Shown: positions 2,784 to 36,856, counted from the first letter of the stretch. The stretch: DNA of 64,000 bases from Candidatus Levyibacteriota bacterium (GCA_030651475.1 JAUSEW010000029.1:21777-85776), one strand, 5' to 3'. Numbers and translations are program-made. Notes: generated by a model from the letters alone, not told the origin.

Positions 2784-4895
2784 ATGGCTGAAGATAAAAG
2801 ATATGTTGAATTAGATCACATCAGAAACATTGGCATTATTGCCCATATTGACGCGGGTAAAACCACGACTACCGAGCGTATTTTGTACTATACAGGGAAA
2901 ACCTACAAAATCGGAGATATTGATGAGGGGACAACGGTCATGGATTGGATGGAAGAGGAAAAGAAAAGAGGGATCACGATTGTGTCTGCTGCAACTACTG
3001 CATATTGGGGGGGTTACAGATTTAATATTATTGACACTCCTGGACACGTTGATTTTACAGCCGAAGTAGAAAGGTCGCTTCGGGTTTTGGACGGTGGAAT
3101 CACAGTTCTGGATGCAGAAGAAGGAGTTCAATCTCAATCCGAAACTGTCTGGAGACAAGCAGATAAATACAAAGTTCCAAGACTTTGTTTTATTAACAAG
3201 ATGGATAAGGTTGGAGCTGATTTTTTGGCAACTGTCAAAAGCATTGAGGACAGACTCGGAGCAAATACGGCAATTATGGTTTTGCCAATCGGAGCCGAAG
3301 CAACCTTTAAGGGAGTTTATGATTTACTGACCAGAAAATCCGTTATCTGGACAGGAGAAGAATTAGGCGCAAAGTTTGAAATTACTTCGGAAATCCCGGA
3401 AGGAATGGGACAGGAGATTGAAAAATACAGAGCCAAGTTGGTTGAGAAAATTGCAGAAACAGATGATGTGCTGGTCGAAAAATATCTTGCAAATCAAGAG
3501 ATTGGGGTTGAGGAATTAAAGAAAGCCTTAAGGCGGGCAGTTATTGCTTATAAATTAGTTCCGATTTTCGCCGGATCATCCTTGAGGAACAAAGGAGTGC
3601 AGCTTCTTCTGGATGGAGTTGTTGATTATCTTCCATCTCCTGTTGATCTAGATCAAGTGAAAGGAATAAATCCAAAAACAGGGGAAGAAGAAATAAGAAA
3701 ATTAGTTCCCGAAGAGTCAATTGCGGGTTTGGCTTTCAAAATTCAGAATGATCCTCACGTTGGAAAACTTACCTATTTTAGGATTTATTCAGGTAAAGTT
3801 GCGGCCGGAACTTATATTTATAACAGCACTAAAAATATTCAAGAAAGGGTTGGGCGGCTGCTTCTGATGCACTCCAATGAAAGAACGGAAATAAAAGAAG
3901 CGTTTGCCGGAGAAATTATTGCAATCGTCGGACTTAAAGACACGACCACAGGAGATACGCTTTGTGATCCGGAAAAACCAATTATTTTAGAAAAAATTAC
4001 CTTCCCGGAGCCGGTTATATCCCTAGCAATTGAGCCAAAAACGAAATCAGATCAGGAGAAATTGGGATACGCTTTAAAACGTTTGATGGATGAAGATCCG
4101 ACATTTCAGGTTAAGACCAATCATGAAACAGGACAGACAATTATTTCAGGAGTTGGAGAGCTGCAGCTTGAGGTTAAAGTAAATACCATGAAGGCTGATT
4201 TCGGAGTTGAGGCCAATGTCGGAGACCCACAAGTGGCCTACAAAGAAACTATTAGCAGGGAAGCGGAAGGTGAAGGAAAATACATCAAGCAATCCGGAGG
4301 AAAAGGACAATACGGACATTGTCTGTTGAGAGTTACGCCTAAGCCTCGCGGAGAAGGTTTTGAATTTGTTAATGGTGTCAAGGGAGGAGCAATTCCGGCA
4401 ATATTTATATCCTCGATTGAAAAAGGAGTTAAGGAAACAATGGAAAACGGAATTTTGTTGGGTTACCCGATGGTAGATATGACGGTTACGGTTTATGACG
4501 GGTCCTATCATGAAGTTGATTCTTCAGATATTGCCTTTAAGATCGCAGCTTCCCAAGCCTTGCAGGCAGCAACCAAAAAAGCAGGCCTGACACTTTTGGA
4601 ACCAATCATGAAAGTTGAAGTAACAACCCCAAATGAATTTATGGGAGATGTGATTGGAGATTTGTCTTCCAAAAGAGCGCAGATTTCAGGGACAGAAGAG
4701 AGAAGCAGAGCAACGATTATTTTGGCAATGGTGCCTTTGTCAGGGCTTCCTGGTTATGCAACTGCGCTTCGCTCTATGTCTCAAGGCAGAGCGTCTTATT
4801 ATATGGAACCTTCACATTATGAGGAAGTGCCCAAAAATATTCAAGAAGAAATGTTGGCCAAATCTACATTTACAGGAAGGGTTAATGCACAGTAA
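2784..4895 (+). CDS. fusA: translation elongation factor G
   Basis: 703 aa; AHIDAGKTTTTERIL, DTPGHVDF, NKMD GTPase motifs and EF-G domain order. Confidence 0.97.
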   Translation: MAEDKRYVELDHIRNIGIIAHIDAGKTTTTERILYYTGKTYKIGDIDEGTTVMDWMEEEKKRGITIVSAATTAYWGGYRFNIIDTPGHVDFTAEVERSLRVLDGGITVLDAEEGVQSQSETVWRQADKYKVPRLCFINKMDKVGADFLATVKSIEDRLGANTAIMVLPIGAEATFKGVYDLLTRKSVIWTGEELGAKFEITSEIPEGMGQEIEKYRAKLVEKIAETDDVLVEKYLANQEIGVEELKKALRRAVIAYKLVPIFAGSSLRNKGVQLLLDGVVDYLPSPVDLDQVKGINPKTGEEEIRKLVPEESIAGLAFKIQNDPHVGKLTYFRIYSGKVAAGTYIYNSTKNIQERVGRLLLMHSNERTEIKEAFAGEIIAIVGLKDTTTGDTLCDPEKPIILEKITFPEPVISLAIEPKTKSDQEKLGYALKRLMDEDPTFQVKTNHETGQTIISGVGELQLEVKVNTMKADFGVEANVGDPQVAYKETISREAEGEGKYIKQSGGKGQYGHCLLRVTPKPRGEGFEFVNGVKGGAIPAIFISSIEKGVKETMENGILLGYPMVDMTVTVYDGSYHEVDSSDIAFKIAASQALQAATKKAGLTLLEPIMKVEVTTPNEFMGDVIGDLSSKRAQISGTEERSRATIILAMVPLSGLPGYATALRSMSQGRASYYMEPSHYEEVPKNIQEEMLAKSTFTGRVNAQ

Positions 4896-4910
4896 ATAGT
4901 AAATAGGGTA

Positions 4911-4939
4911 TTGACTAGAAGGAAAAAATATTGTATATT
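4911..4939 (+). promoter_or_regulatory. sigma70-like promoter for tuf (TTGACT-17 bp-TATATT)
   Basis: hexamers and 17-bp spacer read directly, about 44 bp upstream of tuf ATG. Confidence 0.5.
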
Positions 4940-4982: not shown

Positions 4983-6170
4983 ATGGCAGAAGCAACTAAA
5001 TATCAAAGAACCAAACCGCATGTTAATATAGGAACCATTGGTCATGTTGACCACGGTAAGACCACTCTTACTGCGGCTATTGCAACAGTTTTGTCTAAAA
5101 AAGGAATGGCGCAGGCCAAAAAGTACGAAGACATAGATAATGCTCCGGAAGAAAAAGCAAGAGGCGTTACCATAAATCTTACTCATATTGAATATGAGAC
5201 AGAAAAACGTCATTATGCTCATATCGATGCTCCTGGACATGCAGATTACATAAAAAATATGATTACAGGCGCCGCTCAAATGGATGGCGCTATTTTGGTT
5301 GTTTCAGCACCGGACGGGCCAATGCCTCAAACAAGAGAGCATATTCTTTTGGCACGACAAGTCGGAGTTCCTGCAATTGTAGTATTTCTTAACAAAGTAG
5401 ATATGGTACAGGATCAGGAATTATTAGACTTGGTAGAAATGGAAGTCAGAGAACTTTTGACTAAGTACCAATATCCGGGAAAAGACACTCCTATTATAAG
5501 AGGTTCGGCTCTTAAAGCTTTGGAGGGAGATCCGGAAGCGGAAAAACAAATAATGGCCCTAATGGATGCAGTTGATACATTTATACCTACTCCAAAAAGA
5601 GATACGGATAAGCCATTCTTGATGCCGGTTGAGGATGTTTTCTCTATTAAAGGCAGAGGAACAGTTGTAACAGGCAGAATTGAAAGAGGAATTGTCAAAA
5701 TTAACGATGCGGTAGAGATAGTCGGACTTAAAGAAACAAAACCAACTATAGTAACAGGTGTTGAAATGTTCAAAAAGCAATTGGATGAGGGTCAGGCAGG
5801 AGATAATGTCGGAGTTTTGCTTCGAGGAATTGAAAAAACAGATGTGGAAAGAGGACAAGTTGTTGCCAAACCGGGAAGTATAACACCCCATAAAGAGTTT
5901 GAGGCGGAGGGATATATTCTTACCAAAGAAGAAGGCGGACGCCATACACCATTCTTTACAGGATACAGGCCTCAATTTTACATTAGAACAACCGATGTGA
6001 CTGCGGAAGTTACTCTTCCAAAAGGTGTAGAAATGGTAATGCCTGGAGACAATACCAAAATGACAGTTAAGCTTATTGCTCCGGTAGCTTTGGAAGAAGG
6101 GCTTAGATTTGCCATCCGCGAAGGCGGAAAAACAGTCGGAGCCGGCGTTATCTCCAAAATAATCGCTTAA
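4983..6170 (+). CDS. tuf: translation elongation factor Tu
   Basis: 395 aa; [25 protein letters not shown] motifs. Confidence 0.98.
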
Positions 6171-6215
6171 GTTTTTAGATTTTAATTTTTTAATCCTCTG
6201 CCCTACAAAAATTAT

Positions 6216-6476
6216 ATGGCTCCAGAAATAGAAATATCACGAGACCAGGAAATTAAGGTATGTCAGTGGATTAAAGCAAAAGGTACGGAAGAATGGCTTT
6301 ATACAGCTGAAAACGACGAAATTGCTATGGCTTCCATCGTAGACAAAGAACCATTAATAATATTTCCGCATTATGCAAATGAAGCAAAGCCCATGCTATA
6401 TTGTAGCGAAAAACTTGCATCCGAACTTGCAAAAGATGGAATCATAACCCTTCCAAAACCTCAACAGAAGAAATAG
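6216..6476 (+). CDS. hypothetical small protein inserted between tuf and rpsJ
   Basis: 86-aa ORF, no recognisable motif. Confidence 0.3.
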   Translation: MAPEIEISRDQEIKVCQWIKAKGTEEWLYTAENDEIAMASIVDKEPLIIFPHYANEAKPMLYCSEKLASELAKDGIITLPKPQQKK

Positions 6477-6883: not shown

Positions 6884-7066
6884 GTTGTTTCTTCGCGCTC
6901 CACCTAAAAATACTCCGTTTGCTAATCGGGGGATGCGATTCCCCCTCCCATCATACGCTTTGTTTCAAATGCGAACAAACAGAATGAAAGAGGGAATTAG
7001 GTAATTCCGCAGGTGTAGCTACAAAAACACCCCAAGGGTGTAAGATGTTGGTTTGCCAAAAGTAGG

Positions 7067-7510
7067 TTAGGGTTTCGTTCCCGTGTCTTTCGAGCTAAAG
7101 CCTAAGTGGCTTTTTAGCGCATTAAGCATGATTTGTTTTGCTTGTTCAATTAGCCCATCTTTCGTTTTATCATCCAGGACTTTATTCTTAAAGCGGAAAA
7201 TCATGTAGGGTTGATCTCCGTAAGCTACAAAATAGTCGTTGATTACGTCTTCTGGTATTTCTAATCCAATAAGTTGTGCTAAAGTTGCTTTTCTTACTTC
7301 CAAATCTCTTTGGTAAAGAGGTCTGAACATTGGCAGGAGAAATTGTTCCTCATCGCAATTGAATCTCCTTTTCCTGAACTCTTTTATTAATTCTTCCGAA
7401 GACGAAACCGCTCTGAGTATAACAACGTTATCTGCAATGTTTTTTTCTGGAATTCCTAATGCCAAAAGCTTTTCTTCCGAGCTTTGTCCATTAATTCTAG
7501 CTTCAGCCAT
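7067..7510 (-). CDS. hypothetical protein on opposite strand between rpsJ and rplC
   Basis: 147-aa ORF; no family recognised. Confidence 0.4.
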   Translation of the reverse strand: MAEARINGQSSEEKLLALGIPEKNIADNVVILRAVSSSEELIKEFRKRRFNCDEEQFLLPMFRPLYQRDLEVRKATLAQLIGLEIPEDVINDYFVAYGDQPYMIFRFKNKVLDDKTKDGLIEQAKQIMLNALKSHLGFSSKDTGTKP

Positions 7511-7635
7511 ATCGACGAATTATAACTTCCTGTTATTGTAAAAGCAAATTTAAACTTATTCTAGCCTCGGGAGAATGGTAGCAGAATAATTTTAAAAATA
7601 TGCTGAAATAAATTCAGAATGACAATTGGAAGCTA

Positions 7636-7664
7636 TTGCATTTATCCCCGTCTTCTTATATAAT
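7636..7664 (+). promoter_or_regulatory. sigma70-like promoter for rplC (TTGCAT-17 bp-TATAAT)
   Basis: read directly. Confidence 0.5.
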
Positions 7665-7744
7665 TACCTTTGAAAGTCATGTTTAACCGACTGGAGGTAA
7701 ATAAGGCTGCATAAATAGAAAGTTTTTGGGATTTTTTCCCTGAA

Positions 7745-7768
7745 GCGACTGTGTGCAGTCGCTTTTTT
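7745..7768 (+). terminator. intrinsic-terminator-like hairpin (GCGACTG-tgtg-CAGTCGC + TTTTTT) in the rplC leader, candidate attenuator
   Basis: perfect 7-bp stem, 4-nt loop, 6-T tract, 14 nt before the rplC ATG. Confidence 0.5.
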
Positions 7769-8552: not shown

Positions 8553-9321
8553 AAAAAACGCAAAACGCACCCATTCGACAGGCTCAGGGCAAAACGCAAA
8601 AAAAGTAATTAAAAAGACTGCAGTTAAAAAGCCTGTTATTAAAAAGGTTGTTGCTAAAAAACCAAAGAGCACTTTATCTTTGGAAGTTTTTGATACGAAA
8701 GGAAAATTATCCGAAACCATTTCACTGCCAAAAGAGATATTCGGAGTAGAAGTTAACGATAAACTTCTTGCCCAAGCTGTCAGAGTTTATTTAGCCAATC
8801 AAAGAGAGGGATCTGCGAGGACAAAAACACGAAGTACTGTTCACGGCACAACTAAAAAGGTTTGGCAGCAAAAAGGCACGGGAAGAGCCAGGCATGGTTC
8901 CAGAAAGGCGCCTATTTTTGTTCATGGAGGAATTGCTTGGGGACCAAGACCAAGAGATTTTTCGCTTTCTCTTTCTAAGAAAATGAGGAAAGCGGCATTA
9001 TTTTCGGCTTTATCTCTAAAACAAAAATCCAATGAAATTAAAGGCATAAAAGGTTTAGAAAAACTGACACCAAAAACGAAATTAATAGTAGAGGTTTTGA
9101 ATAATTTGGGAGTAAATAAAGACAATAAAAAAATACTTTTGATAACGCCAAAGGGAAAAGAATTTGAAAACGTTTATCGAGCGGCAAGAAATATTCAAGG
9201 AGTGAGCCTTTTGCCGGCTGACATAATTAATGCATATCAAGTTATGGATAATAAACTGATTTTGCTTATGGATAAATCTCTGGATGTTATCACAAGCAAT
9301 TTTCTAAAGGAGAAAGCATAA
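8542..9321 (+). CDS. rplD: 50S ribosomal protein L4 with Lys-rich N-terminal extension
   Basis: 259 aa; L4 core (VHGTTKKVWQQKGTGRARHGS). Confidence 0.9.
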   Translation: MPVKKNAKRTHSTGSGQNAKKVIKKTAVKKPVIKKVVAKKPKSTLSLEVFDTKGKLSETISLPKEIFGVEVNDKLLAQAVRVYLANQREGSARTKTRSTVHGTTKKVWQQKGTGRARHGSRKAPIFVHGGIAWGPRPRDFSLSLSKKMRKAALFSALSLKQKSNEIKGIKGLEKLTPKTKLIVEVLNNLGVNKDNKKILLITPKGKEFENVYRAARNIQGVSLLPADIINAYQVMDNKLILLMDKSLDVITSNFLKEKA

Positions 9322-9322
9322 T

Positions 9323-9616
9323 ATGTTGAATCTAAATGTTATCATAGCGCCGGTTATAAGCGAAAAATCAACCAAAGGAATCCAGGAGGGTAAATTTACA
9401 TTTAAGGTTGCCAAGACCGCAACAAAGAGAGAAATCAAAAAAGCAATTGAGAATCAATTTAAAGTAAATGTTTTAAAAGTAAAAACCAGTATTGTTAAAG
9501 GAAGACAAAGTAGAGTTGGTGTAAGAAGAATGGAAGTATCACAAAGCAGTTTTAAAAAAGCAATAGTGTCCTTAAAAAAAGGTCAAAAAATCGACATTTT
9601 TGAAGTGGCAGGCTAA
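9323..9616 (+). CDS. rplW: 50S ribosomal protein L23
   Basis: 97 aa; position in operon and L23 pattern (VISEKST...[15 protein letters not shown]). Confidence 0.9.
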
Positions 9617-23399: not shown

Positions 23400-23861
23400 A
23401 TGGAGGATAAAAAAATAATAGAACCAAAAGTTGATAAAAAGGATTATATCTTCGCAGTTGGCAGACGTAAGGAGGCCATAGCCGGAGTGCGTTTTCATAA
23501 AAAAGATAAAGTTTCGTGGGGGGATATAACGGTAAACAAAGGAGAAATATTTGTTAATAAAATGCCGGCAGAAAAATATTTCGGAAGCCAAGCTGTAAAT
23601 GTATATAGCGAGCCATTGCGTCTTGCTAATATGGAGAATAAGTTTGCCATAACGGTTATTGTCAGAGGCGGAGGAAAATTTGGACAATTGGATGCTATGG
23701 TTTTGGGTATAGCAAGAGCGTTAAATCAATTAGACAGAGATAAATTTCGTCCGGCTCTTAAAAAACAGGGATTTCTTACTCGGGATTCCAGAACTAGGGA
23801 ACGTAGGAAAGTGGGAATGGGCGGTAAAGCAAGAAGAAGAAAACAAAGTCCTAAGAGGTAA
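23400..23861 (+). CDS. rpsI: 30S ribosomal protein S9
   Basis: 153 aa; C-terminal GGKARRRKQSPKR. Confidence 0.93.
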   Translation: MEDKKIIEPKVDKKDYIFAVGRRKEAIAGVRFHKKDKVSWGDITVNKGEIFVNKMPAEKYFGSQAVNVYSEPLRLANMENKFAITVIVRGGGKFGQLDAMVLGIARALNQLDRDKFRPALKKQGFLTRDSRTRERRKVGMGGKARRRKQSPKR

Positions 23862-24456
23862 ACTTTTTATAAAGTTTTATAAATTCTTCATTTTTTGACA
23901 AGAGTTTAGTTTCTTGCTCGCACCAGACAGAATAAGTACCGGGTTTTTGTTCGATTTCCCTTAAGAACTCCTGCCATTTTATCCATCTTACCCTCTCTAC
24001 CTCGCCGCGATTTAATAAAGGTTTTTTATCGCTAAACGCAATAAGGACAGGACAGATCTCATTTTCAACAATACCATTCATTTCTGCTTTGTAAGAAAAG
24101 TCGGGTAAAATTTCAAATAACTTATCTATCTTAATCCCCAATTCAAAATTTAATCTTCTCTTAGCAGCATCTATATTTGATTCATTAAGCATTGGGTGTC
24201 CGCAGACGGAATTTGACCAAACCAGAGGCCACGTCTTTTTCTTACCGCTTCGTTGCTGAAGAAGTAATTGTCCCTTAGAATTGAAAAGAAAAACGGAAAA
24301 TGCCCTATGTAAAGGAGTATTACTGTTATGTGTTGCTAATTTCGGAGCAATCCCCAATACGTTATTATTTTTATCAACTAAAACTACATAATCTTCTACT
24401 TTTTCCATAATGCAAACAAAAAACTTATCAGTAAGTAGATTAACAAAATCTGCCAA
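23851..24456 (-). CDS. idi: isopentenyl-diphosphate delta-isomerase type 1 (Nudix)
   Basis: HRAFSVFLFNSKGQLLLQQRSGKKKTWPLVWSNSVCGHP matches IDI-1 signature; true start possibly internal Met (MEKVEDYVV). Confidence 0.85.
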   Translation of the reverse strand: MADFVNLLTDKFFVCIMEKVEDYVVLVDKNNNVLGIAPKLATHNSNTPLHRAFSVFLFNSKGQLLLQQRSGKKKTWPLVWSNSVCGHPMLNESNIDAAKRRLNFELGIKIDKLFEILPDFSYKAEMNGIVENEICPVLIAFSDKKPLLNRGEVERVRWIKWQEFLREIEQKPGTYSVWCEQETKLLSKNEEFIKLYKKFTS

Positions 24457-25653: not shown

Positions 25654-26808
25654 ATGGATTTTCGTGCTTATGTAAGTGTTGATAAGAGACGTAAGGCAGT
25701 AGAAGATAATTTAAAAGTTAACCTTTCTAATATTGGCAATTATTCCTTTGATTCAAAGCTGGCATCTTCAAGAAATTGCGAGAATATGATTGGAGCAGTT
25801 CAAATTCCATTAGGGATTGCTGGGCCTTTAAAAATAAAAAGCGATTTCTCTGAAGATGAAGTTTTTTTACCGTTAGCTACAACAGAAGGGGCTTTAGTTG
25901 CATCTGTAAATAGGGGATGTAAGGTAATTACTCTAAGCGGAGGAGTAACTGTTAATAGCCAAAGGATAGGAATAACAAGAGCTCCGGTTTTTGTGGTGAA
26001 TAATCAAAAAGAAGGTAAAAAGTTCGTAGAGTGGGTAAATTCTAGCTTTAAACTTCTTAAGCAAGTTACGGAATCCACTTCATCTCATCTGACCCTTTTA
26101 GATATAAAATCTACCTTCATGGGAAGAAATGTTTATTTAAGATTTAGATTTGATTCACAAGATGCAATGGGCATGAATATGGCAACAATTGCGTGTACCA
26201 AAGCGGCATCTTTTATAGAAAAAGAAACAAAAGCGCGATTAGTGGCGATTTCCGGGAATATGTGTGTTGATAAAAAGCCTAGTTTATTAAATTTTATTGA
26301 AGGAAGAGGGTATTCCGTTTCAGCTGACATATTAATCCCACGAAAAATTGTAGAATCTACGTTAAAGTCTAAAACAGAAAGTATCGTCGAAGTCGCGCAG
26401 CGCAAGCTAATGTACGGGTCTTTACTTTCGGGCAGTGTTGGGGCAAATGCTCACTATGCAAATATTTTATCAGCTATGTTTATAGCGACTGGACAAGACG
26501 CAGCGCATGTGGCAGAATGTTCTGTAGGTATAACAACAGCGGAAGAAATAAAGGGTGATCTCTATGTCTCAATATATCTACCCGATCTCGTGGTAGGAAC
26601 AGTTGGCGGAGGAACATCTCTTGAAACCCAAAAAGAAGCATTATCAATTATGGGAATTAGTGGTGGCAATAATGGAAAAAATGCAAGAAAATTAGCAGAA
26701 ATTATTGGAGGAGCTGTGCTCGCAGGAGAGATTTCCTTATTAGCATCTTTAGCGGATAATTCTTTAGCATCAGCTCATCGGAAATTAGGGAGGGGAGAAA
26801 AAATATAA
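25654..26808 (+). CDS. hmgA: 3-hydroxy-3-methylglutaryl-CoA reductase (class-I-like catalytic domain)
   Basis: 384 aa; ENMIG, DAMGMNM, GTVGGGT signatures. Confidence 0.9.
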   Translation: MDFRAYVSVDKRRKAVEDNLKVNLSNIGNYSFDSKLASSRNCENMIGAVQIPLGIAGPLKIKSDFSEDEVFLPLATTEGALVASVNRGCKVITLSGGVTVNSQRIGITRAPVFVVNNQKEGKKFVEWVNSSFKLLKQVTESTSSHLTLLDIKSTFMGRNVYLRFRFDSQDAMGMNMATIACTKAASFIEKETKARLVAISGNMCVDKKPSLLNFIEGRGYSVSADILIPRKIVESTLKSKTESIVEVAQRKLMYGSLLSGSVGANAHYANILSAMFIATGQDAAHVAECSVGITTAEEIKGDLYVSIYLPDLVVGTVGGGTSLETQKEALSIMGISGGNNGKNARKLAEIIGGAVLAGEISLLASLADNSLASAHRKLGRGEKI

Positions 26809-26812
26809 AATT

Positions 26813-27850
26813 ATGACAGGAATTGTTGGATACGGAACCTATATTCCGAAATATCGTCTTAGACTTTCTGAAATTGCCAAGGTGTGGGGAAAGGATACGG
26901 CCGAAATAGAAAATGGACTGCGTATTTCTGAAAAAGCTGTTCCTGGTTTTGATGAAGATGCCGTAACTATGGGAGTGGAAGCATCAAAAAAAGCCATTGC
27001 TATGGCAGGTATTAATCCTTCTTCTCTGCAAAGCGTATATTTTGGTTCAGAAAGTCATCCTTACGCTGTTAATCCTTCTTCAACAACACTTGGAGAATAT
27101 TTGGGTATAGGAAATAATTATTTTGCGGCAGATTTGGAGTTTGCCTGCAAAGCCGCTACAGCCGGCATGCAGATAACAGTGGGATTAATAGATAGCAAAA
27201 ATATAAAATATGGTTTGGTTGTGGGAAGTGACACTGCTCAAGGTAAACCTCACGATGCGTTAGAATATACAGCAGCGAGTGCCGCATGCGCGTACATTTT
27301 GGGGAATAAGGAAACAGAAATTATTGCAAAAATTCTGGAAATGTCATCCTTCTCATCCGACACTCCTGATTTCTGGAGAAGGGATGGAGCCAAATATCCA
27401 TCCCATTTTGGAAGATTTACTGGCGAACCGGCGTATTTTACTCACATAATTCAAGAGGGGAAAAATTTACTTGCAAAAAGCAAACTTAAGCCTGAAGATT
27501 TTGACTACTGTGTTTTTCATATGCCTAACGGTAAATTTCCAAGAGTTGTTGCTAAAAAACTTGGATTTACCTCCGGGCAACTAGCACAATCTCTTATAGT
27601 TGATAAAATTGGCAATCCGTATTCAGCATCTGCATTGATGGGATTAGCAAGCGTCCTAGATATTGCAAAACCAAAACAAAAAATATTCTTTGTTTCTTAC
27701 GGATCGGGTGCAGGATCAGATGGTTTCATATTTGAAACTACGAGTAGAATTTTACAAAAACAAAAAAAGATAATTACAGTCTCAAAGCAAATGGAAGATA
27801 AGATTTATATTTCCTATCCAACTTATTTAAGACAAACACACGTCATATGA
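26813..27850 (+). CDS. hydroxymethylglutaryl-CoA synthase (archaeal / short type)
   Basis: 345 aa; thiolase-fold HMGCS pattern, N-terminal GIVGYGTYIPKYRL. Confidence 0.85.
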   Translation: MTGIVGYGTYIPKYRLRLSEIAKVWGKDTAEIENGLRISEKAVPGFDEDAVTMGVEASKKAIAMAGINPSSLQSVYFGSESHPYAVNPSSTTLGEYLGIGNNYFAADLEFACKAATAGMQITVGLIDSKNIKYGLVVGSDTAQGKPHDALEYTAASAACAYILGNKETEIIAKILEMSSFSSDTPDFWRRDGAKYPSHFGRFTGEPAYFTHIIQEGKNLLAKSKLKPEDFDYCVFHMPNGKFPRVVAKKLGFTSGQLAQSLIVDKIGNPYSASALMGLASVLDIAKPKQKIFFVSYGSGAGSDGFIFETTSRILQKQKKIITVSKQMEDKIYISYPTYLRQTHVI

Positions 27851-28995
27851 AAATAAATATATTGGGAACTCATGCAACGAAATTTGGAGAGTTATGGAAT
27901 ATATCTCCGCGTGCATTAGCAAGGGAGGCAATGGAAAATGCATTAAATGCATCCGGCTTGAAAGCATCTGATATAGACGCTTTATATGTAGGGAATATGT
28001 TGTCCGGAATTTTGGGTAATCAAGCGAATTTAGGATCCTTGCTCGTTGAAGAGCTGGGTGTTCAAGTTCCCGCTTTTAGAATAGAAGGCGCTTGCGCTTC
28101 AGGAGGTTTAGCTTTGCATAACGCGATTAACAGTCTTAAAGCGGGGCAATATAAAACAGTTTTGGTTTTAGGTATAGAAAAAATGACAGATCATAGTCAA
28201 GATGAGATTACAAATGCTTTAATGTCTGCGGGATCGGACGAAGAGCGTTTGGCTGGTGCAACATTTCCCGGAGTATATGCGCTAATGGCCCAAGCCTATA
28301 TGCAGCAATATAAAGTAAGCGAAGAAGATTTGGCTTGCGTTTCCGTAAAAAACCATTATCATGGAACGCTAAATCCCAAAGCTCAATTCCAATTTCCCAT
28401 AACCATAGCCGATGTTATGAGAAGCGCAAAGATTGCTGATCCGCTCAAACTTCTAGATTGTTCTCCGATTTCAGATGGGGCTGCGGCAGTTGTTATTACC
28501 AGCGAAAATATTCTTAAAAAAAATAAGAAACCCATACAGATTATTGCAAGCGAAGTAGCCACAGACACGCTTAGTCTTCATGACAGAAAATCTTTTACCA
28601 GTTTGAGTGCCGTTGTTGAAGCATCTACGAAAGCGTATGGAAAAGCAGGATTAAAACCTTCGGATATTGATGTTGCTGAAATTCATGATTGTTTTTCAAT
28701 TTCAGAGGCGATTGCAACAGAAGATTTAGGTTTTTCTAAAAAGGGCGAAGGTGCAAGGGATATTGCCAAAGGCAAGAGAACGCTTTTTAAAGGGGATATT
28801 ATTTGTAATCCATCGGGAGGACTAAAAGCCTGCGGTCATCCTGTTGGAGCAACAGGCATAAAGCAGATAGTCGAGCTTACGGAACAGCTTAGAGGAGAAG
28901 CTGGGAAACGTCAGGTTGAAAAAGCAAGGATTGGTTTGGCTCACAATGTCGGGGGAAGCGGTACGATAGCGGCAATTCATATTTTACAAAAATAG
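27847..28995 (+). CDS. acetyl-CoA C-acetyltransferase (archaeal-type thiolase)
   Basis: 382 aa; thiolase pattern with active-site Cys (EGACASGG), HDCFSI, NPSGG. Confidence 0.85.
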   Translation: MKINILGTHATKFGELWNISPRALAREAMENALNASGLKASDIDALYVGNMLSGILGNQANLGSLLVEELGVQVPAFRIEGACASGGLALHNAINSLKAGQYKTVLVLGIEKMTDHSQDEITNALMSAGSDEERLAGATFPGVYALMAQAYMQQYKVSEEDLACVSVKNHYHGTLNPKAQFQFPITIADVMRSAKIADPLKLLDCSPISDGAAAVVITSENILKKNKKPIQIIASEVATDTLSLHDRKSFTSLSAVVEASTKAYGKAGLKPSDIDVAEIHDCFSISEAIATEDLGFSKKGEGARDIAKGKRTLFKGDIICNPSGGLKACGHPVGATGIKQIVELTEQLRGEAGKRQVEKARIGLAHNVGGSGTIAAIHILQK

Positions 28996-29000
28996 ATATT

Positions 29001-29303
29001 ATGATAACATCACCGGTAAAACTTTGGAGAAGGCAAAAAAATACATCAGCTCTTATAGGGAAAAAAGGGAAAATTTTGCAGTGGACAATTATTCGGGTTC
29101 CGGCTAAATCTTTTATTGATCAAGCGCCGTACCCTGTTGTAATTGTGAAAATGCAAAATGGAGAAAATATGATTGGGCAATTAGTTGACTGGCAGGAAAA
29201 AGATTTGATAGTAGGGAAAGACGTTATTGCTGTTTTGCGAAGATTGAGAACGGAAGGGAAAGAAGACGTTATCTACTACAACATTAAATTCAAGCCTCTA
29301 TGA
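29001..29303 (+). CDS. DUF35-family OB-fold protein (thiolase/HMGCS partner), lacking zinc-ribbon
   Basis: 100 aa; OB-fold pattern; no cysteines; position right after thiolase as in archaea. Confidence 0.6.
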   Translation: MITSPVKLWRRQKNTSALIGKKGKILQWTIIRVPAKSFIDQAPYPVVIVKMQNGENMIGQLVDWQEKDLIVGKDVIAVLRRLRTEGKEDVIYYNIKFKPL

Positions 29304-30367
29304 AAAAAATTCAAGTTTCTGCCCCGGGTAAGTTACATTTATTGGGCGAACACGTGGTAGTACACGGAAAACCAGCTATTATTGCAACGGTAAATAAACG
29401 CTGTTTTGTAGAAATTACTCCCCGAAAAGATAGGAAAATAGAAATTATTTCTGAAAATTTGAAAGCAAGTAAGATAGTTACGGAAAAAGAAATTATTGCA
29501 AAAACTAAAGAAGCGCAAACAAAATGGGAAACTTATATAAAAACTAATGAGATATCTCTTCTTAAGTCTATAGCTTCAGATCCCTTAGACTTTCCGATTA
29601 TTGTTATTGGTGAGACTTTAAAATATCTTAACAAAACTTTACCATTTGGTTTTACTCTATCAATAAAATCAGATATTCCAATTGGTTCCGGGATGGGATC
29701 TTCTGCGGCACTTAGTGTTTCTATAGCTGGTGCCATGTATTTATTGTTTAATAAAAATTTAGATAAAGAAGTTATAAATGAAATTGCCTATCTTGCAGAA
29801 CAAAAGAAACACGGCCTTCCGTCCGGAGGAGACAATGTTGCTAGTTGTTTTGGAGGAATGGTTTGGTATCGTAAAGAAACACCAGACTTAAAAATTATCA
29901 AACCAATTCCTTTTTCCTTCCCCCGAAAATTGGCAAAGAATTTTGTCGCCATTCATACAGGTATTCCAATTGAATCAACAGGCGAAATGGTAAGTATCGT
30001 ACGGGGACTATATCAAACAAAAAAAGATTTTGTTGAAAATATTTTATCAAGCCAGGAAAAACTAACACGAGAGCTTCTATCTGCAATAAAGGATGGCGAC
30101 GACACTCTAATGATACGTATCATTAGAGCGGGAGAGAAAAACCTTGAAGCGTTAGGGGTTGTAGGAAAAAAGGCACAAGCTATAATTAGGGAAATAGAAA
30201 AGTTAGGAGGAGCGGCAAAAATATCTGGAGCAGGAGGTATTAAGAATGGGTCGGGAATGCTTCTTGCTTACCATAAAACACCAGTAGCTCTTGATGAAGC
30301 TTGTTTGCAATTTAAACTTACGAATAGTAAAATAGCGCTTGGAGACGAGGGCTTAAGACAGGAGTAA
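29300..30367 (+). CDS. mvk: GHMP kinase, mevalonate kinase-like
   Basis: 355 aa; APGKLHLLGEHVVV N-terminus, PIGSGMGSSAA motif 2; contains 24-bp palindrome copy 3. Confidence 0.75.
   Translation: MKKIQVSAPGKLHLLGEHVVVHGKPAIIATVNKRCFVEITPRKDRKIEIISENLKASKIVTEKEIIAKTKEAQTKWETYIKTNEISLLKSIASDPLDFPIIVIGETLKYLNKTLPFGFTLSIKSDIPIGSGMGSSAALSVSIAGAMYLLFNKNLDKEVINEIAYLAEQKKHGLPSGGDNVASCFGGMVWYRKETPDLKIIKPIPFSFPRKLAKNFVAIHTGIPIESTGEMVSIVRGLYQTKKDFVENILSSQEKLTRELLSAIKDGDDTLMIRIIRAGEKNLEALGVVGKKAQAIIREIEKLGGAAKISGAGGIKNGSGMLLAYHKTPVALDEACLQFKLTNSKIALGDEGLRQE
30105..30128. repeat. 24-bp perfect palindrome CTCTAATGATACGTATCATTAGAG inside mvk coding sequence, copy 3 of 3
   Basis: read directly; 25 nt (30104-30128) identical to 1196-1220. 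Confidence 0.95.
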
Positions 30368-30371
30368 AATT

Positions 30372-31226
30372 ATGGTACCCATAAACTATGGAGGAAGAAT
30401 TGAAAGTAGAGGTCCTGAAACCTATAGGAGTCAGTCCTTATTAGACACTATTTTTCAAGCAACTGGTTTAGAAAATTTTCAAGGAAGTGCAGTTGTTATC
30501 GATTTAATGTCGGGTCCTGGAGGAATAGCGCTTAATCTTCAGAAAAAAGCCTCCAGACATTCTTATGCTGTTCTAGATTATGATCAGGAACAATTAGCCA
30601 AAATAGGGGAGCACGAGCCCGTAAATAAGATATTGGCTGATGTAAGGAATGTATCTTCTGTTGTTAAAGGAGAATCTGTAGATATCGCAACTGCTCGTTA
30701 TGGGATTAAGGATATACCTCAAGGGCAACAGCTTCAAGCGCTCAAAGGTATTAATGAGATATTGAGACCAGGAGGAGTTTTTGTGCTTACAGATATGATT
30801 TCCTTGGAAGGTGAAGGATTGCAGAGGTGGCTTAACATACAACATAGTCAAAAGCAGCAGCTTAGCGGAAGAGAAATTGAAAAAGAGGGAGAGTGTTATA
30901 TCCCGACAGAAAAAGAGTGGCTAGCGATGTTAAAAGAAGTGGGTTTTGAAGCGGAAGTTTTTGGTTATTATACAAGTCCTATTTCTACTGGGGATTGGCT
31001 TACGGGAAATCAATTTGGTAATCCAAAATCACCGGAAGCGGCCAGGAAAAAAGCTATTATGGACGAGATAATAATGAACGCTCCAGAAGGTGTGAAAAAA
31101 GCGTTTAATGTGCGACAAGGAGTGAATGGTATGGAAATTGATTATCCAGTTGTTATAATAAGAGCAGTTAAGAAAGTAGCAGAGTCTGGTTTGCCTACTG
31201 CTGGTGATTTATATGCCGCAAGCTAA
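30372..31226 (+). CDS. class I SAM-dependent methyltransferase
   Basis: 284 aa; motif I VIDLMSGPGGIA, motif post-I ILRPGGVFVL. Confidence 0.7.
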   Translation: MVPINYGGRIESRGPETYRSQSLLDTIFQATGLENFQGSAVVIDLMSGPGGIALNLQKKASRHSYAVLDYDQEQLAKIGEHEPVNKILADVRNVSSVVKGESVDIATARYGIKDIPQGQQLQALKGINEILRPGGVFVLTDMISLEGEGLQRWLNIQHSQKQQLSGREIEKEGECYIPTEKEWLAMLKEVGFEAEVFGYYTSPISTGDWLTGNQFGNPKSPEAARKKAIMDEIIMNAPEGVKKAFNVRQGVNGMEIDYPVVIIRAVKKVAESGLPTAGDLYAAS

Positions 31227-32190
31227 AAAGATTACTGTTTCGGCGCCGGGGAAATTAATGCTTTTAGGTGAGCATGCTGTTGTCTATGATCATCCCTGTT
31301 TGGTAACTGCTGTTGACCAAAGAATGCGGGCAACTGTTGAAACTTTAGATTCTTTAGAATTCCAATTGGAAGCAGAAGACGTAAAGGTTACCGGTTATAA
31401 AAAGCCTTTAAGCGAAGTTGGTATTGGAGATATCCCAAAGGGCGCAAAATTTGTAGAAATTGCTCTAAAAAATATTAATGAAAAATATCCTCTTAAAACA
31501 GGATTAAAAATAACAACTACATCGGAATTCTCTTCCCAATTCGGATTTGGATCTTCTTCCGCATCAACAGTCTGTACGATAAAAGCGGTTTCTGAAATTC
31601 TGGGTTTGAATTTATCTGAAAAAGCAATTTTTGATCTTGCGTTTAAAACTGTTTTGGATATTCAGGGAAAAGGATCGGGTTTTGATGTGGCAGCTGCGGT
31701 TTATGGCGGAACTCTGTATTTCGTAACCGGCGGAAAAGTAATTGAGCCTTTAGATATTAAATCATTGCCGTTAATTGTTGGATATAGCGGAGTAAAAGGA
31801 GACACAGTAACGTTGATGAACAAAGTAAAAGAGACTTTTGCCGATAAACAAGGTCGTCTTAATCAAATTTATAATAGTATTGAAGCCTTGGTTGATCAAG
31901 CAAAAATGGTACTTCTTAAAAGCGATTGGAAAACATTTGGAGACCTAATGAATCAGAATCAGAAATATTTAAGCGAATTAGGAATTAGTATTGAAAAACT
32001 TGATAATATGATTAAAGGCGCACTTGATGCAGGCGCTTATGGCGCAAAGCTTTCCGGCGCAGGAGGAGGGGATTGTATGATTGCTATTGCGACAGAAGAA
32101 AAAAAACAAGCAGTTGAGCAAGGCATCAATGCAGTTGGCGGAGAAGTTATCAATGTTGGCACCAACGCAGAAGGCGCAAGAGTGGAATAA
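31204..32190 (+). CDS. GHMP kinase (mevalonate / phosphomevalonate kinase; assignment ambiguous)
   Basis: 328 aa; APGKLMLLGEHAVVY, GFGSSSAS, KLSGAGGGDCMIA motifs; 23-nt overlap with upstream methyltransferase gene. Confidence 0.7.
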   Translation: MIYMPQAKKITVSAPGKLMLLGEHAVVYDHPCLVTAVDQRMRATVETLDSLEFQLEAEDVKVTGYKKPLSEVGIGDIPKGAKFVEIALKNINEKYPLKTGLKITTTSEFSSQFGFGSSSASTVCTIKAVSEILGLNLSEKAIFDLAFKTVLDIQGKGSGFDVAAAVYGGTLYFVTGGKVIEPLDIKSLPLIVGYSGVKGDTVTLMNKVKETFADKQGRLNQIYNSIEALVDQAKMVLLKSDWKTFGDLMNQNQKYLSELGISIEKLDNMIKGALDAGAYGAKLSGAGGGDCMIAIATEEKKQAVEQGINAVGGEVINVGTNAEGARVE

Positions 32191-32194
32191 AATT

Positions 32195-32971
32195 ATGGGA
32201 CATGAAGCATCATTAGTGCCAGATATTTTGCCTCCAGGTAGAAGAATTGCTCTGATAGATATAGATGGTACATTGACTGAGGGTCTTACCATCTCTTCGT
32301 TTGCTGAATACTTAGACAATAACGATTCTTTTAATTCATCTTCGTGGGATCATATGCAGGAAGATTTTTCTCGTTATAGCGCCAGCGATCATGGACATGC
32401 TGCTTATGAGCAATTTGCCGTAGATTTAGTATTGCATTATGCTGATGGATTAAGAGACTACAGAGTAAGCGATGTCGAAGCTATGGCTGGCAAGTTTTTT
32501 GTTTCTGTGCAAAGAAATGAGGTTCCTGAATACAGAGTGTATCCATTTTCTCCTCAGCTAGTTCATCTTATGAATAAAATAGGAACAACAATAGCAGTTT
32601 CCGGTTCTCCAGCTGAGTCACTTGCTCCGTTAAAACGCATTCTTAATTTAGGAGATTTAAGAGCTACTGCTATTGGACAAAAGAATGGAATCTATACAGG
32701 AAGAGTAGATATTAATTTGGCATTAGACTCTGAAAAGAAAAAGGTAGTTGGGGAATATATAGCTGAAGATACAGATAGCGCACGCTCTTTTGCTTTTGGA
32801 GATACGATGCATGATTTGCCCATGCTGGAAGCTGTGGGAAATCCTTTTGTGGTTGGAGATAATTCGCATTTACTAGCTGTTGCAAGAAGAAGGGGATGGT
32901 CTATAATTAATTCTGACAATGCTATTGATCAAGTAGCGCAGAGAATAAACACTTTATTTAAGAATACTTAA
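32195..32971 (+). CDS. HAD-superfamily hydrolase, subfamily IB-like
   Basis: motif I IALIDIDGTLTE, motif IV GDTMHDLPML; ATG 32195 chosen because ORF-track start 32081 overlaps upstream gene. Confidence 0.65.
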   Translation: MGHEASLVPDILPPGRRIALIDIDGTLTEGLTISSFAEYLDNNDSFNSSSWDHMQEDFSRYSASDHGHAAYEQFAVDLVLHYADGLRDYRVSDVEAMAGKFFVSVQRNEVPEYRVYPFSPQLVHLMNKIGTTIAVSGSPAESLAPLKRILNLGDLRATAIGQKNGIYTGRVDINLALDSEKKKVVGEYIAEDTDSARSFAFGDTMHDLPMLEAVGNPFVVGDNSHLLAVARRRGWSIINSDNAIDQVAQRINTLFKNT

Positions 32972-33948
32972 TGAAAGCAACTGCAGTAGCCCCGTCAAAT
33001 ATAGCATTCGTCAAATATTGGGGTAAAAAAGACGAAAAGCTTCGACTTCCTGAAAACGGCAGTATCTCCATGAATTTAAATAATCTTCAGACTACAACAA
33101 CTGTTGAGTTTAATAAAGATTTTAGAGAAGACTTAATTATCATTAACGATCAGAAAGAGGAAAATGAAGGAAGCAGAGCTATAAAGCATTTAGATAGAAT
33201 TAGAATTCTTGCAAAAATAAATTACAAAGCAAAAGTAGTAACTAAAAATAATTTTCCTACAGGTACCGGACTTTCTTCATCTGCATCAGGTTTTGCAGCG
33301 TTAACTTTAGCCGGCGCAAAAGCAGCTGGATTAAATCTGTCGGAAAAAGAATTGTCAATTCTTGCAAGACAAGGATCTGGTTCTGCTTGCCGTTCTATTC
33401 CAGGTGGATTCGTAGAATGGTTAGATGGGGATACAAGCGATACATCTTATGGCGTGTCGTTATATCCTAAAAATTATTGGGACATTGTTGATGTGGTTGC
33501 TGTTGTTAGTAAAAACAAAAAAGAAGTTAGCACGACTGAAGGACAAAAATTGGCAAAATCAAGTCCGTTTTTTCCGATTCGTTTAGCAAGAATAAAAGAA
33601 AAAATTAGATTAATAAAACAATATTTGAAGGAAAAAGATTTTAAAAATTTCGGAGAATTGTTGGAAGCGGAAGCATTGGAACTTCATGCAATTATGTTAA
33701 CCTCAACACCTTCGCTTATATATTGGTTGCCGGGAACTTTGAAAGTTATGCATGCTGTTAAAAGATGGAGAGCTGAAGGATTACAAGTTTATTTTACTGT
33801 TAATACAGGGCAGGATATTCATCTGATTTGTCAAAAAAAAGACGTTGAAAAAGTTGTTAAAAAAGCAGAAGAGATATTAGATGTTCAAAAAACAATTGTC
33901 AATTATCCTAGCAAAGGAGCGCATTTAATTTCAGCACATCTTTTTTAA
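32971..33948 (+). CDS. mvaD: diphosphomevalonate decarboxylase
   Basis: 325 aa; SNIAFVKYWGKKDE, GLSSSASGFAAL. Confidence 0.88.
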   Translation: MKATAVAPSNIAFVKYWGKKDEKLRLPENGSISMNLNNLQTTTTVEFNKDFREDLIIINDQKEENEGSRAIKHLDRIRILAKINYKAKVVTKNNFPTGTGLSSSASGFAALTLAGAKAAGLNLSEKELSILARQGSGSACRSIPGGFVEWLDGDTSDTSYGVSLYPKNYWDIVDVVAVVSKNKKEVSTTEGQKLAKSSPFFPIRLARIKEKIRLIKQYLKEKDFKNFGELLEAEALELHAIMLTSTPSLIYWLPGTLKVMHAVKRWRAEGLQVYFTVNTGQDIHLICQKKDVEKVVKKAEEILDVQKTIVNYPSKGAHLISAHLF

Positions 33949-34838
33949 AAAGTTCTTTTTTCTATAATTTCAACTAAATCTAAAAATTTCTTTTTATATT
34001 TTATTTCCATTTCCATATTTGCAATAATTATTTTAGCGCTCTTTATATTATCTTTAACTATCTCTTTTTGAGATGCTAAGTCTTTATGTTTTCGGTTGGT
34101 ATCAAATATATCGTCTTGAGATTGAAAAGCTATGCCCAATCCCAATCCTAATTCTTTGCAAAACCTTTCTGCGTGCGAAGTTAATTCTCCTGCCAAGGAC
34201 GCACCAATCAATAAGGGATAAATAAAAGAGTATCTTGCTGTTTTTAGATAGTTTATCTTAGAATTTAAAGTCGGTATTATTTTTTGGCGTGATTGAGAAT
34301 CAATATCGAGCATTTGACCCACTATTGTTCCATCAACCATATCGAAAAAAAACTTTCTTACTCTTTGAATTGCAGATTGATCAAAGTCCAAATTTAAATT
34401 TATAATTTCCGTAGCCCAATTGAAGAAAAGATCTCCTAAAAGAATTGCCTGTGAGTTACCGAAATGTTCATAATTTTTATTTCCCCTTTCTTTTTTTAAT
34501 TTCTCACCAATATATATATGAGAGGCATATATTCCATGACGCATGTTTCCTTTATCCATAATATCATCATGGATAAGTGCAAATATATGAAAGATCTCGA
34601 GTGCAATTAATAATTTCAGAACTTTTTCTGTTTCCTTTCCTCCAAAAGCCTGATATGTTAGAAATGCGATAAATGGGCGTATGCGTTTTCCGCCTGATAA
34701 AGTAATTTTTTTAGCATAGTTAATATAGTCAATAATTGAAGAATCTTTGGTATAATTAATAATGCTCTTCATTTTTTTATCAAGGTAGTCCTGGAGATAG
34801 GGGTCAAATTTTTGTTTAAATACTTCTAAGTCGTTCAT
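33945..34838 (-). CDS. short-chain trans-polyprenyl diphosphate synthase (FPP/GGPP synthase family)
   Basis: 297 aa; first DDxxD (LIHDDIMD) and second (FQSQDDIFD) Asp-rich motifs. Confidence 0.85.
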   Translation of the reverse strand: MNDLEVFKQKFDPYLQDYLDKKMKSIINYTKDSSIIDYINYAKKITLSGGKRIRPFIAFLTYQAFGGKETEKVLKLLIALEIFHIFALIHDDIMDKGNMRHGIYASHIYIGEKLKKERGNKNYEHFGNSQAILLGDLFFNWATEIINLNLDFDQSAIQRVRKFFFDMVDGTIVGQMLDIDSQSRQKIIPTLNSKINYLKTARYSFIYPLLIGASLAGELTSHAERFCKELGLGLGIAFQSQDDIFDTNRKHKDLASQKEIVKDNIKSAKIIIANMEMEIKYKKKFLDLVEIIEKRTF

Positions 34839-36305: not shown

Positions 36306-36572
36306 ATGGTAAAATTTAAAATAGACCAGAAAATTGTAGAAAAGATCGGTTGGGCGGCTTCAATAATAGCTATTCTGATGTGGTTTTCATTTTTTGACCA
36401 AATTCGTTTAAATCTTGCCGGACAAAAAGGCTCATTAATAATTCCAATAGTAGTTACGGTAAACTGTATTTTATGGACATTGTTTGGACTAGGAAAGAAG
36501 AATTGGCAAATAGTTGCTTCTAATGTGCCGGGGATATTCATTGGGATTATTACAGCAATAACCGCGTTATAA
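36306..36572 (+). CDS. small 3-TM membrane protein, SemiSWEET / PQ-loop-like
   Basis: 88 aa; resembles SemiSWEET layout (TM1 ... FFDQIRL ... ) by eye. Confidence 0.35.
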   Translation: MVKFKIDQKIVEKIGWAASIIAILMWFSFFDQIRLNLAGQKGSLIIPIVVTVNCILWTLFGLGKKNWQIVASNVPGIFIGIITAITAL

Positions 36573-36598: not shown

Positions 36599-36856
36599 TT
36601 AATCTAAGATAGGTTTACCAAATTTTATTAAATTATCTTTCTTTTTCCTGCGCCATCCTTTAATTTGTTTTTCGCGTCTTCTAGCTTGTAATAGTGTTAA
36701 AAACTTTTCTGAATAGACTAATTTAAAATTTTTATTTCTTTTTGTGAATTCCGCACCATCCCCTTTATTATGTCTTTGAAGTCTCGCTTGAAGATTATCG
36801 GTAACACCAACATATAGATGATTTTTGGAGTTTTTTAGGATATATAAAGAGTACAT
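36599..36856 (-). CDS. GIY-YIG nuclease family protein (stand-alone)
   Basis: 85 aa; YSLYILKNSKNHLYVGVTDNLQARLQRHN ... LVYSEKF ... IKGW. Confidence 0.75.
   Translation of the reverse strand: MYSLYILKNSKNHLYVGVTDNLQARLQRHNKGDGAEFTKRNKNFKLVYSEKFLTLLQARRREKQIKGWRRKKKDNLIKFGKPILD

Follow-up and report, generated by a model that had tools for sequence, protein, structure and literature searches.

A methyltransferase family linked to lower mevalonate pathway genes in CPR bacteria and DPANN-type archaea

Introduction

C-methylation of isoprenoid precursors is a known reaction of secondary metabolism, with precedents on IPP, DMAPP, GPP and FPP in actinomycetes and Serratia (PMC9401056 and reviews). 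The enzymes that methylate IPP or DMAPP include Lon23/argMT from S. argenteolus, monMT from S. monomycini, fasMT from R. fascians and humMT from M. humi (PMC9401056). Where the mevalonate (MVA) pathway has been surveyed in CPR bacteria and archaea, the core enzymes are listed but a methyltransferase is not mentioned (PMC6107057, PMC11052028, PMC8975820). In the full-text literature that we searched, we found no description of a link between the methyltransferase discussed here and the MVA pathway, and no report of methylated polyprenols or C6 units from CPR or DPANN organisms.

Here we analyse a 64,000-nucleotide stretch of DNA (the window) from a Candidatus Levybacteria genome. An initial annotation, made from the sequence alone, had pointed to a SAM-dependent methyltransferase gene inside the MVA operon of this organism. 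We describe the gene and its protein, its distribution and neighbours in CPR bacteria and archaea, and the reactions that it might catalyse.

Results

The methyltransferase gene lies in a nine-gene mevalonate operon

The MVA operon occupies ~25.6-34 kb of the window and comprises nine tightly packed genes on the + strand, in the order HMGR, HMGS, thiolase, DUF35, kinase A, methyltransferase (MTase), kinase B, HAD hydrolase and MVD. The host belongs to Candidatus Levybacteria, within the CPR. The features of the operon and its surroundings are listed here with the evidence for each.

23851-24456, - strand: NUDIX-family protein, presumed type 1 IPP isomerase (IDI); Pfam NUDIX
25654-26808, + strand: HMG-CoA reductase (HMGR); Pfam
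26813-27850, + strand: archaeal-type HMG-CoA synthase (HMGS); Pfam
27847-28995, + strand: thiolase (AACT); Pfam
29001-29303, + strand: DUF35/OB-fold protein; Pfam
29300-30367, + strand: GHMP kinase A, divergent mevalonate-kinase-like, presumed phosphomevalonate kinase; TIGR00549, 182.7 bits
30360-30364, + strand: AGGAG, Shine-Dalgarno-like, 7 nt 5' of the MTase ATG and right before the kinase A stop; sequence
30372-31226, + strand: class I SAM-dependent methyltransferase (MTase), 284 aa, ATG start; ORF and Pfam
31213-32190 (alternative GTG start at 31204), + strand: GHMP kinase B, canonical archaeal-type mevalonate kinase; TIGR00549, 207.5 bits
32195-32971, + strand: HAD-IB family hydrolase; PF12710, TIGR01490/TIGR01488
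32971-33948, + strand: diphosphomevalonate decarboxylase (MVD); TIGR01240, 270.7 bits, over cut-off
33945-34838, - strand: polyprenyl diphosphate synthase, convergent with the operon; PF00348
34843-35625, - strand: undecaprenyl-diphosphate-synthase-type cis-prenyltransferase, convergent with the operon; PF01255

A sigma factor gene lies upstream of the operon, as does the NUDIX (IDI-type) gene, and the position of the latter is kept in L012, L018, L028 and other loci (L and P numbers are our own labels). Within the nine genes, no terminator-like sites were found above chance expectation, and a search of the 64-kb window for an IPK gene found none. The window also encodes, in the interval separating the isoprenoid cluster from recA, a SemiSWEET-like protein of 88 aa (36306-36572, + strand; MtN3_slv, E 7e-6) and one of 85 aa with a GIY-YIG domain (36599-36856, - strand). 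The matching place in L001 is taken by a 23S_rRNA_IVP gene.

Both GHMP kinases exceed the TIGR00549 mevalonate-kinase cut-off, kinase A with a weak C-terminal domain. Kinase B matches the mevalonate kinase (MVK) of M. mazei (4hac) over its full length with 131 bits, and the match of kinase A to the M. mazei enzyme is partial (86 bits). Kinase A is presumably the phosphomevalonate kinase (PMK).

The initial annotation had described the MTase as embedded between these two kinases, and the ORF together with the Pfam and TIGR00549 matches confirms the tightly packed arrangement. Its placing of the MTase start 5 bp past the upstream kinase gene is also correct: the kinase A stop codon is a TAA at 30365-30367 and the MTase ATG follows five bases on, at 30372, leaving a 4-nt spacer. 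The 23-nt overlap that it reported with the next kinase gene holds if kinase B starts at GTG 31204, but is reduced to 14 nt if the start is ATG 31213. We consider the ATG more likely, because the called kinase B gene of L001 has the identical 14-nt overlap with its MTase gene.

The protein is a conserved class I methyltransferase

The MTase ORF is 100% identical to a MAG protein listed by NCBI as 'class I SAM-dependent methyltransferase [Candidatus Levybacteria bacterium]'. Pfam models over cut-off are PF13649 Methyltransf_25 (32.2 bits, cut-off 27), PF01209 Ubie_methyltran (27.4 bits, cut-off 20.1), PF08241 Methyltransf_11 (26.4 bits, cut-off 21.2) and PF13489 (27.1 bits, cut-off 27). Together with the SAM-binding motifs and the seven-stranded alpha/beta fold, these domain models place the protein among the class I methyltransferases; the AF2 model has a pLDDT of 91.5. 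Relatives form 28 close clusters in a word-index search, and an exhaustive search with an MTase profile yielded 209 representative clusters at E<1e-10, of which 68 reach E<1e-30. The gene is therefore genuine and conserved.

Aligning 28 homologues, at 36-73% identity, leaves 28 positions invariant. The family signature comprises Y6, R9, Y18, D44, M46, G48, G50, D69, D90, R109, Y110, K113, D114, D141, M142 and H158, together with K161, Q162, R167, E172, C175, S202, W209 and Q214. Y6, R9 and Y18 lie in the N-terminal segment, R109-Y110-x-x-K113-D114 comes after strand 4 and D141-M142 after strand 5. Motif I is a variant form, V-I-D44-L-M46-S-G48-P-G50, with an invariant Met in place of the first Gly. 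Conservation of D69 and D90, the acids that bind ribose and adenine, is 90% or higher in the 28 sequences and likewise in 175 family members. A lid motif, QHSxKQQLSGRxIxxEGECxIPT, which includes H158, K161, Q162, R167, E172 and C175, is specific to the MTase family. Residues common to all three MVA-linked subfamilies are Y6, Y18, R109, Y/F110, K113, D/N114, D141, M142, H/R158, K161, S202, W209 and Q214. Judging from the secondary structure of the model and from position in the class I fold, the invariant residues would sit on elements that normally form the substrate pocket. The predicted mixture of Arg/Lys/His with Tyr/Trp would suit a small phosphate-bearing ligand in cation-stabilising aromatic surroundings.

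A PDB profile search with the MTase returned BH2331 (4.5e-16), CysG-type methyltransferases (~4e-11), YcgJ and phosphoethanolamine N-methyltransferases (7e-6). The only RNA-related PDB matches are CmoA and METTL6, at E 1.7e-5 or worse and in the core only, and no rRNA, tRNA or protein methyltransferase family reaches cut-off in the Pfam or NCBIfam lists. To the initial annotation, closest homologues among rRNA or protein methyltransferases, combined with a loss of synteny, would have spoken against a role in the MVA pathway. We see instead that the closest relatives are of the small-molecule type and that synteny is kept. On sequence grounds, the MTase is a class I methyltransferase of small-molecule type, from a family without a characterised member.

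Linkage to the mevalonate operon persists through rearrangement

CPR synteny was sampled from seven contigs reached via homologous proteins and ten genome representatives reached via the MTase profile; these come from Levy-, Gottesman- and Woesebacteria, 'Patescibacteria' and several TPA MAGs titled Gammaproteobacteria. The order HMGR-HMGS-AACT-DUF35-kinase A-MTase-kinase B-(HAD, IDI or nothing)-MVD is found in ~17 Microgenomates loci, with MTase identities of 36-62%. The synteny that the initial annotation had proposed to look for is conserved across Microgenomates, and lower-MVA genes also lie beside the DPANN-type archaeal homologues described below. Rearranged operons were seen in L008 (kinase A, HD protein, MTase, kinase B, MVD, IDI), in L010 (MTase, kinase A, NUDIX, adjoining ruvAB) and in L056 and L067 (DUF35, MTase, kinase A, kinase B, MVD). 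The MTase-MVA link survives operon rearrangement, and the MTase adjoins kinase A in every CPR locus but L008.

Five of the loci (L014, L016, L019, L020 and L021) come from TPA MAGs labelled 'uncultured Gammaproteobacteria bacterium' and carry an MVA operon of the CPR/Microgenomates type, complete with archaeal-type HMGS, thiolase and DUF35. This label is probably wrong.

The methyltransferase is an optional member of the operon

A metagenome scan anchored on MVD gave 80 loci at 52-89% MVD identity, 40 of which contain both kinases. The MTase gene lies between the kinases in none of these 40 loci and upstream of kinase A in two, and the kinases abut, with a gap below 60 nt, in ~33. The window's closest relative, L026 (73% identity for kinase A, 87% for kinase B and 89% for MVD), has an 11-nt kinase junction without an MTase gene. 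The presence of a methyltransferase in the MVA operon, as first annotated, is therefore real and recurrent but not fixed: the gene is missing from ~95% of related CPR operons, L026 included, and because it has been lost so widely its function is dispensable. A core pathway step can be ruled out, given the absence of the MTase from 38 of the 40 related operons.

On a neighbour-joining tree of kinase B and MVD, built without bootstrap, MTase-bearing operons are scattered and each has an MTase-less sister. MTase divergence correlates only moderately with that of kinase B and MVD (Mantel r 0.44, a value reached in 9 of 5000 permutations), and the MTase evolves faster, with a mean identity of 44% versus 61%. 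Between L014 and L020 (MTase at 7001-7768 in both), identity is 86% for kinase B and MVD and 42% for the MTase, against 67% between L019 and L020. The L014/L020 discordance suggests either that the MTase was replaced by recombination inside the operon or that rates are very uneven. No adaptation to MTase presence is visible in the core MVA enzymes. A recent horizontal insert was ruled out, as the GC and GC3 of the MTase gene equal those of its neighbours and its divergence partly tracks that of the operon. The simplest reading is that the MTase is an old accessory gene with a history of many losses and some exchange.

Phosphohydrolases recur at the same operon junctions

A 345-aa HD-domain protein, representing one orthologous family, lies between kinase A and kinase B in L068, L083 and L008, in the last case followed by the MTase. 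The HD-domain proteins are listed below.

L008, 532-1560: HD-domain protein
L068, 1284-2339: HD-domain protein
L083, 6996-8021: HD-domain protein
L032, 5845-7944: HD-domain protein, fusion

Members share 35-46% identity and were seen only at the kinase A/kinase B junction of Microgenomates MVA operons; the protein gave no match in PDB or NCBIfam. The L032 protein is fused to a class I methyltransferase of another kind, which has only the Rossmann core in common with the present family. The resulting 700-aa HD-MTase fusion is itself conserved: it forms nine clusters, with identities of 48-61%, and one of these bears the name Candidatus Roizmanbacteria. The HD hydrolase and the MTase appear to work as a pair.

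The kinase B/MVD junction is likewise variable. It holds the HAD-IB gene in the window, a gene for another HAD hydrolase in L062, L080 and L089 and an IDI gene in L015, L017, L044, L046, L081 and L087, and is otherwise empty. The HAD-IB hydrolase of the window (32195-32971) is a second non-canonical gene in this operon. From the HD, HAD, IDI and MTase genes that occupy these junctions it follows that phosphohydrolases and methyltransferases are recurrent optional passengers of the operon.

Archaeal homologues lie in other types of mevalonate cluster

The MTase signature is kept well beyond the CPR, in members that their sources name Micrarchaeota, Micrarchaeaceae, Diapherotrites and Candidatus ainarchaeum. 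Three of the five archaeal-type contexts examined are MVA clusters, of types unlike the CPR operon. In L106 (Micrarchaeaceae) the homologue adjoins genes for mevalonate-3-phosphate 5-kinase (M3P5K), bisphosphomevalonate decarboxylase (MBD), a mevalonate-3-kinase (M3K)-like protein and IPK. In L107 (Ca. ainarchaeum) it is flanked by UbiX/UbiD and IPK and has MVD-like and MVK genes close by, and in L108 and L109, which represent a third subfamily, it adjoins IPK and MBD-like, M3K-like and M3P5K-like genes. No MVA neighbours were seen at L022 or on the P0064 contig. As the archaeal linkage involves cluster types unlike that of the CPR, hitch-hiking is unlikely. The lower-MVA link of the MTase family is cross-domain, extending over CPR Microgenomates and DPANN-type archaea. 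L106 also has a SAM synthetase gene (8689-9565); ~7 kb separates it from the MTase homologue and from the Thermoplasma-type cluster of lower-MVA genes.

The family is thereby linked to three lower-MVA variants that differ in their biochemistry: the classical MVK/PMK/MVD route, the Thermoplasma-type M3K/M3P5K/MBD/IPK route of L106 and L108, and UbiD/UbiX with IPK in L107. Intermediates of the classical route are MVA-5-P and MVA-5-PP, and those of the Thermoplasma-type route are MVA-3-P and MVA-3,5-PP; the route in L107 possibly proceeds via anhydromevalonate phosphate, if its UbiD is the archaeal decarboxylase. Since the variants share only mevalonate and IP/IPP/DMAPP, and the predicted pocket combines Arg/Lys/His with Tyr/Trp, a phosphorylated C5 compound is the most likely substrate. 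In CPR the MTase directly adjoins kinase A, the presumed PMK, whereas two of the archaeal clusters place it beside IPK; each of these enzymes converts a monophosphate to a diphosphate. Taken as a whole, the genomic context would narrow the substrate towards IP/IPP/DMAPP or mevalonate.

Distant paralogues occur in other settings

A distant subfamily, in which K113 is replaced by H and the signature reads RYHDDMHKTR..CIPSWQFP, provides the domain at the C terminus of Hanks-type Ser/Thr protein kinases, which are 550-1050 aa long (P0101, P0117, P0126, P0128, P0129, P0139 and P0143). Other 'H-type' homologues, at L023 and L025, are surrounded by proteins without known function, IS elements and a radical-SAM fragment. 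The PADLOC 'mad2' match of this subfamily spans the MTase core only, and a profile of the divergent subfamilies (A2) gave almost no useful matches in the word-index database. Given paralogues that are fused to Ser/Thr kinases or lie amid unknown genes, the chemistry at family level need not concern isoprenoids. On L023 (1-6312), two copies of an IS3-type transposase pair (2-1176 and 5135-6312) bracket the stand-alone distant homologue P0098 (2768-3568), a protein of 457 aa that matches no Pfam family (3565-4938) and another of 303 aa, and this arrangement looks like a composite transposon.

Discussion

The reading that we favour, and hold tentatively at a little less than an even chance, is that the MTase is an optional small-molecule methyltransferase from a lower-MVA-tied family, predicted to be catalytically competent and to act on a phosphorylated C5 compound at the end of the pathway, be it IP, IPP or DMAPP. 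As for the chemistry, SAM-dependent methylation of the olefin of this compound, giving a C6 'homo' unit, would be the most likely. Such a side-branch may have been kept by some lineages and lost by most, and the HD and HAD phosphohydrolases at the operon junctions may feed or drain it. In line with the proposal of the initial annotation, the product may be a C6 unit or a pathway intermediate to which a methyl group has been added. The occurrence of the family in three lower-MVA variants and two domains, with an HD partner and an HD-MTase fusion, argues for a side-reaction on isoprenoid precursors. A larger claim would be that ultra-small symbionts of both domains possess a methylation branch leading from IP/IPP/DMAPP to a C6 'homo-isoprenoid' or some other phospho-isoprenoid that carries an added methyl group, and that an HD phosphohydrolase is dedicated to this branch as a partner; this we regard as rather unlikely.

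Mevalonate is the other metabolite common to the three linked variants, and O-methylation of the carboxyl or hydroxyl group of mevalonate or phosphomevalonate could, by analogy with BioC and Tam, mask, park or export the intermediate, with the HD and HAD proteins in the same side-route. The predicted pocket is rich in Arg/Lys, BioC and JHAMT are among the structural neighbours of the MTase, and Micrarchaeota have only the lower MVA pathway and may rely on host-derived precursors (PMC8975820), all of which would fit. However, dozens of other methyltransferases are at least as close as BioC and Tam, an ester would block decarboxylation while no esterase is encoded nearby, and the immediate neighbour in archaea is IPK, whose substrate has no carboxylate. 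We judge O-methylation to be improbable.

A reading of about the same low probability is that the MTase serves in metabolite repair or overflow, where together with HD, HAD or Nudix phosphohydrolases it would inactivate a lower-pathway by-product that is toxic or inhibitory, instead of making a new isoprenoid. A patchy and dispensable gene that evolves faster than the core enzymes would suit such a role, as would the recurrent hydrolases at the junctions and the conserved HD-MTase fusion of Roizmanbacteria-like genomes. The argument is nonetheless one purely from context.

We consider it very unlikely that the protein is a SAM/SAH-binding regulatory subunit or pseudo-enzyme that modulates the neighbouring kinase (CPR kinase A or archaeal IPK) and so couples isoprenoid flux to methyl-cycle status. 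The position beside kinase A in all CPR loci but L008, and beside IPK in L107 and L108, agrees with this, as do the overlapping reading frames, which suggest co-translation, and the fusion of distant paralogues to Ser/Thr protein kinases. Yet the SAM motifs and the many invariant polar residues on pocket-forming elements are what catalysis predicts, and the kinase A of L026, 73% identical to that of the window, works without an MTase. Equally doubtful is an unrelated housekeeping or specialised methyltransferase (for tRNA, protein or a phosphobase, for example) that sits in the operon through a chance event of the past, passed on within Microgenomates: homologues without MVA neighbours (L022, the P0064 contig, L023 and L025) and matches to phosphoethanolamine N-methyltransferases and CmoA, which are among the better characterised ones at E ~1e-5 in the Rossmann core only, are outweighed by independent archaeal MVA linkage in different cluster types, a link kept after rearrangements, the recruitment of an analogous HD-fused methyltransferase to the same kinase junction, and the lack of any rRNA, tRNA or protein methyltransferase family at cut-off.

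What would be new here is that a known fold and a known pathway are joined by an undescribed accessory branch. If the MTase does produce a methylated C5 phosphate, it would offer a phylogenetically remote new biocatalyst for non-canonical terpenoid building blocks, and a true cross-domain branch would imply that organisms with little-known lipid biology contain polyprenyl carriers, lipids or signals that are methylated. The question touches on the poorly understood membranes and carrier lipids of CPR and DPANN organisms, and is open to direct test with one recombinant protein and a few commercial substrates.

Comparison with known methyltransferases

Several described enzymes resemble the MTase in part. 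The likeness to UbiE, MenG and COQ5 lies in the Ubie_methyltran model (27.4 versus 20.1 bits), and some databases name homologues 'UbiE'. UbiE-type quinone methylation was ruled out by the NCBIfam equivalog models, every one of whose cut-offs the MTase misses by a wide margin (NF001244, 35.2 versus 216 bits; TIGR01934, 32.1 versus 158; NF001242, 30.1 versus 351), and no quinone-pathway genes were seen in any MTase locus. Phosphoethanolamine N-methyltransferases (3uj7, 4r6w) are also small-molecule enzymes; their substrate carries a phosphate, an N-terminal Tyr is present and the lid is basic. Their match is however to the Rossmann core alone (query 36-155), and the genomic context of the MTase is unrelated to choline metabolism.

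The nearest structures are the uncharacterised proteins YcgJ from B. subtilis (1xxl) and BH2331 from B. halodurans (1vl5), which show full-length structural and profile similarity to the MTase, including the C-terminal extension. The annotation of YcgJ was still incomplete in 2018 (PMC6158493). Both lack the lid motif and most of the invariant residues except R109: in the HMMER alignment, BH2331 reads TCRIAAHHFP against vvRYglkDip in the MTase family, and QHSxKQQ...EGECxIPT is missing from it. The common pocket and lid residues expected of orthologues were thus not found in YcgJ or BH2331.

Kinship to the IPP and GPP C-methyltransferases, raised in the initial annotation, was not borne out, as neither the PDB profile search nor the comparison with structure representatives gave any specific similarity. 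Geranyl diphosphate 2-C-methyltransferase (4f84) and C6-FPP methyltransferase (9tb4) share 11-16% identity with the MTase and come 10th and 15th in a series of generic methyltransferases with little to separate them. No prenyl-diphosphate methyltransferase is among the best 60 PDB profile matches, and for the PDB representatives of the prenyl diphosphate C-methyltransferases (IPPMT/GPPMT/FPPMT) no kinship rises above the class I background. The genomic linkage typical of IPPMT/GPPMT/FPPMT is present, with the MTase gene near IPPS/UPPS in CPR and near IPK and lower-MVA genes in archaea. As with the actinomycete IPP/DMAPP C-methyltransferases, we see a class I SAM-dependent methyltransferase encoded beside isoprenoid-precursor or prenyltransferase genes, and the C6 and C7 units made by those enzymes are the kind of product that we propose for the MTase. 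The actinomycete enzymes belong to secondary-metabolite operons, whereas the clusters that carry the present family are primary lower-MVA ones, in CPR and DPANN-type organisms, and the family has often been lost from them.
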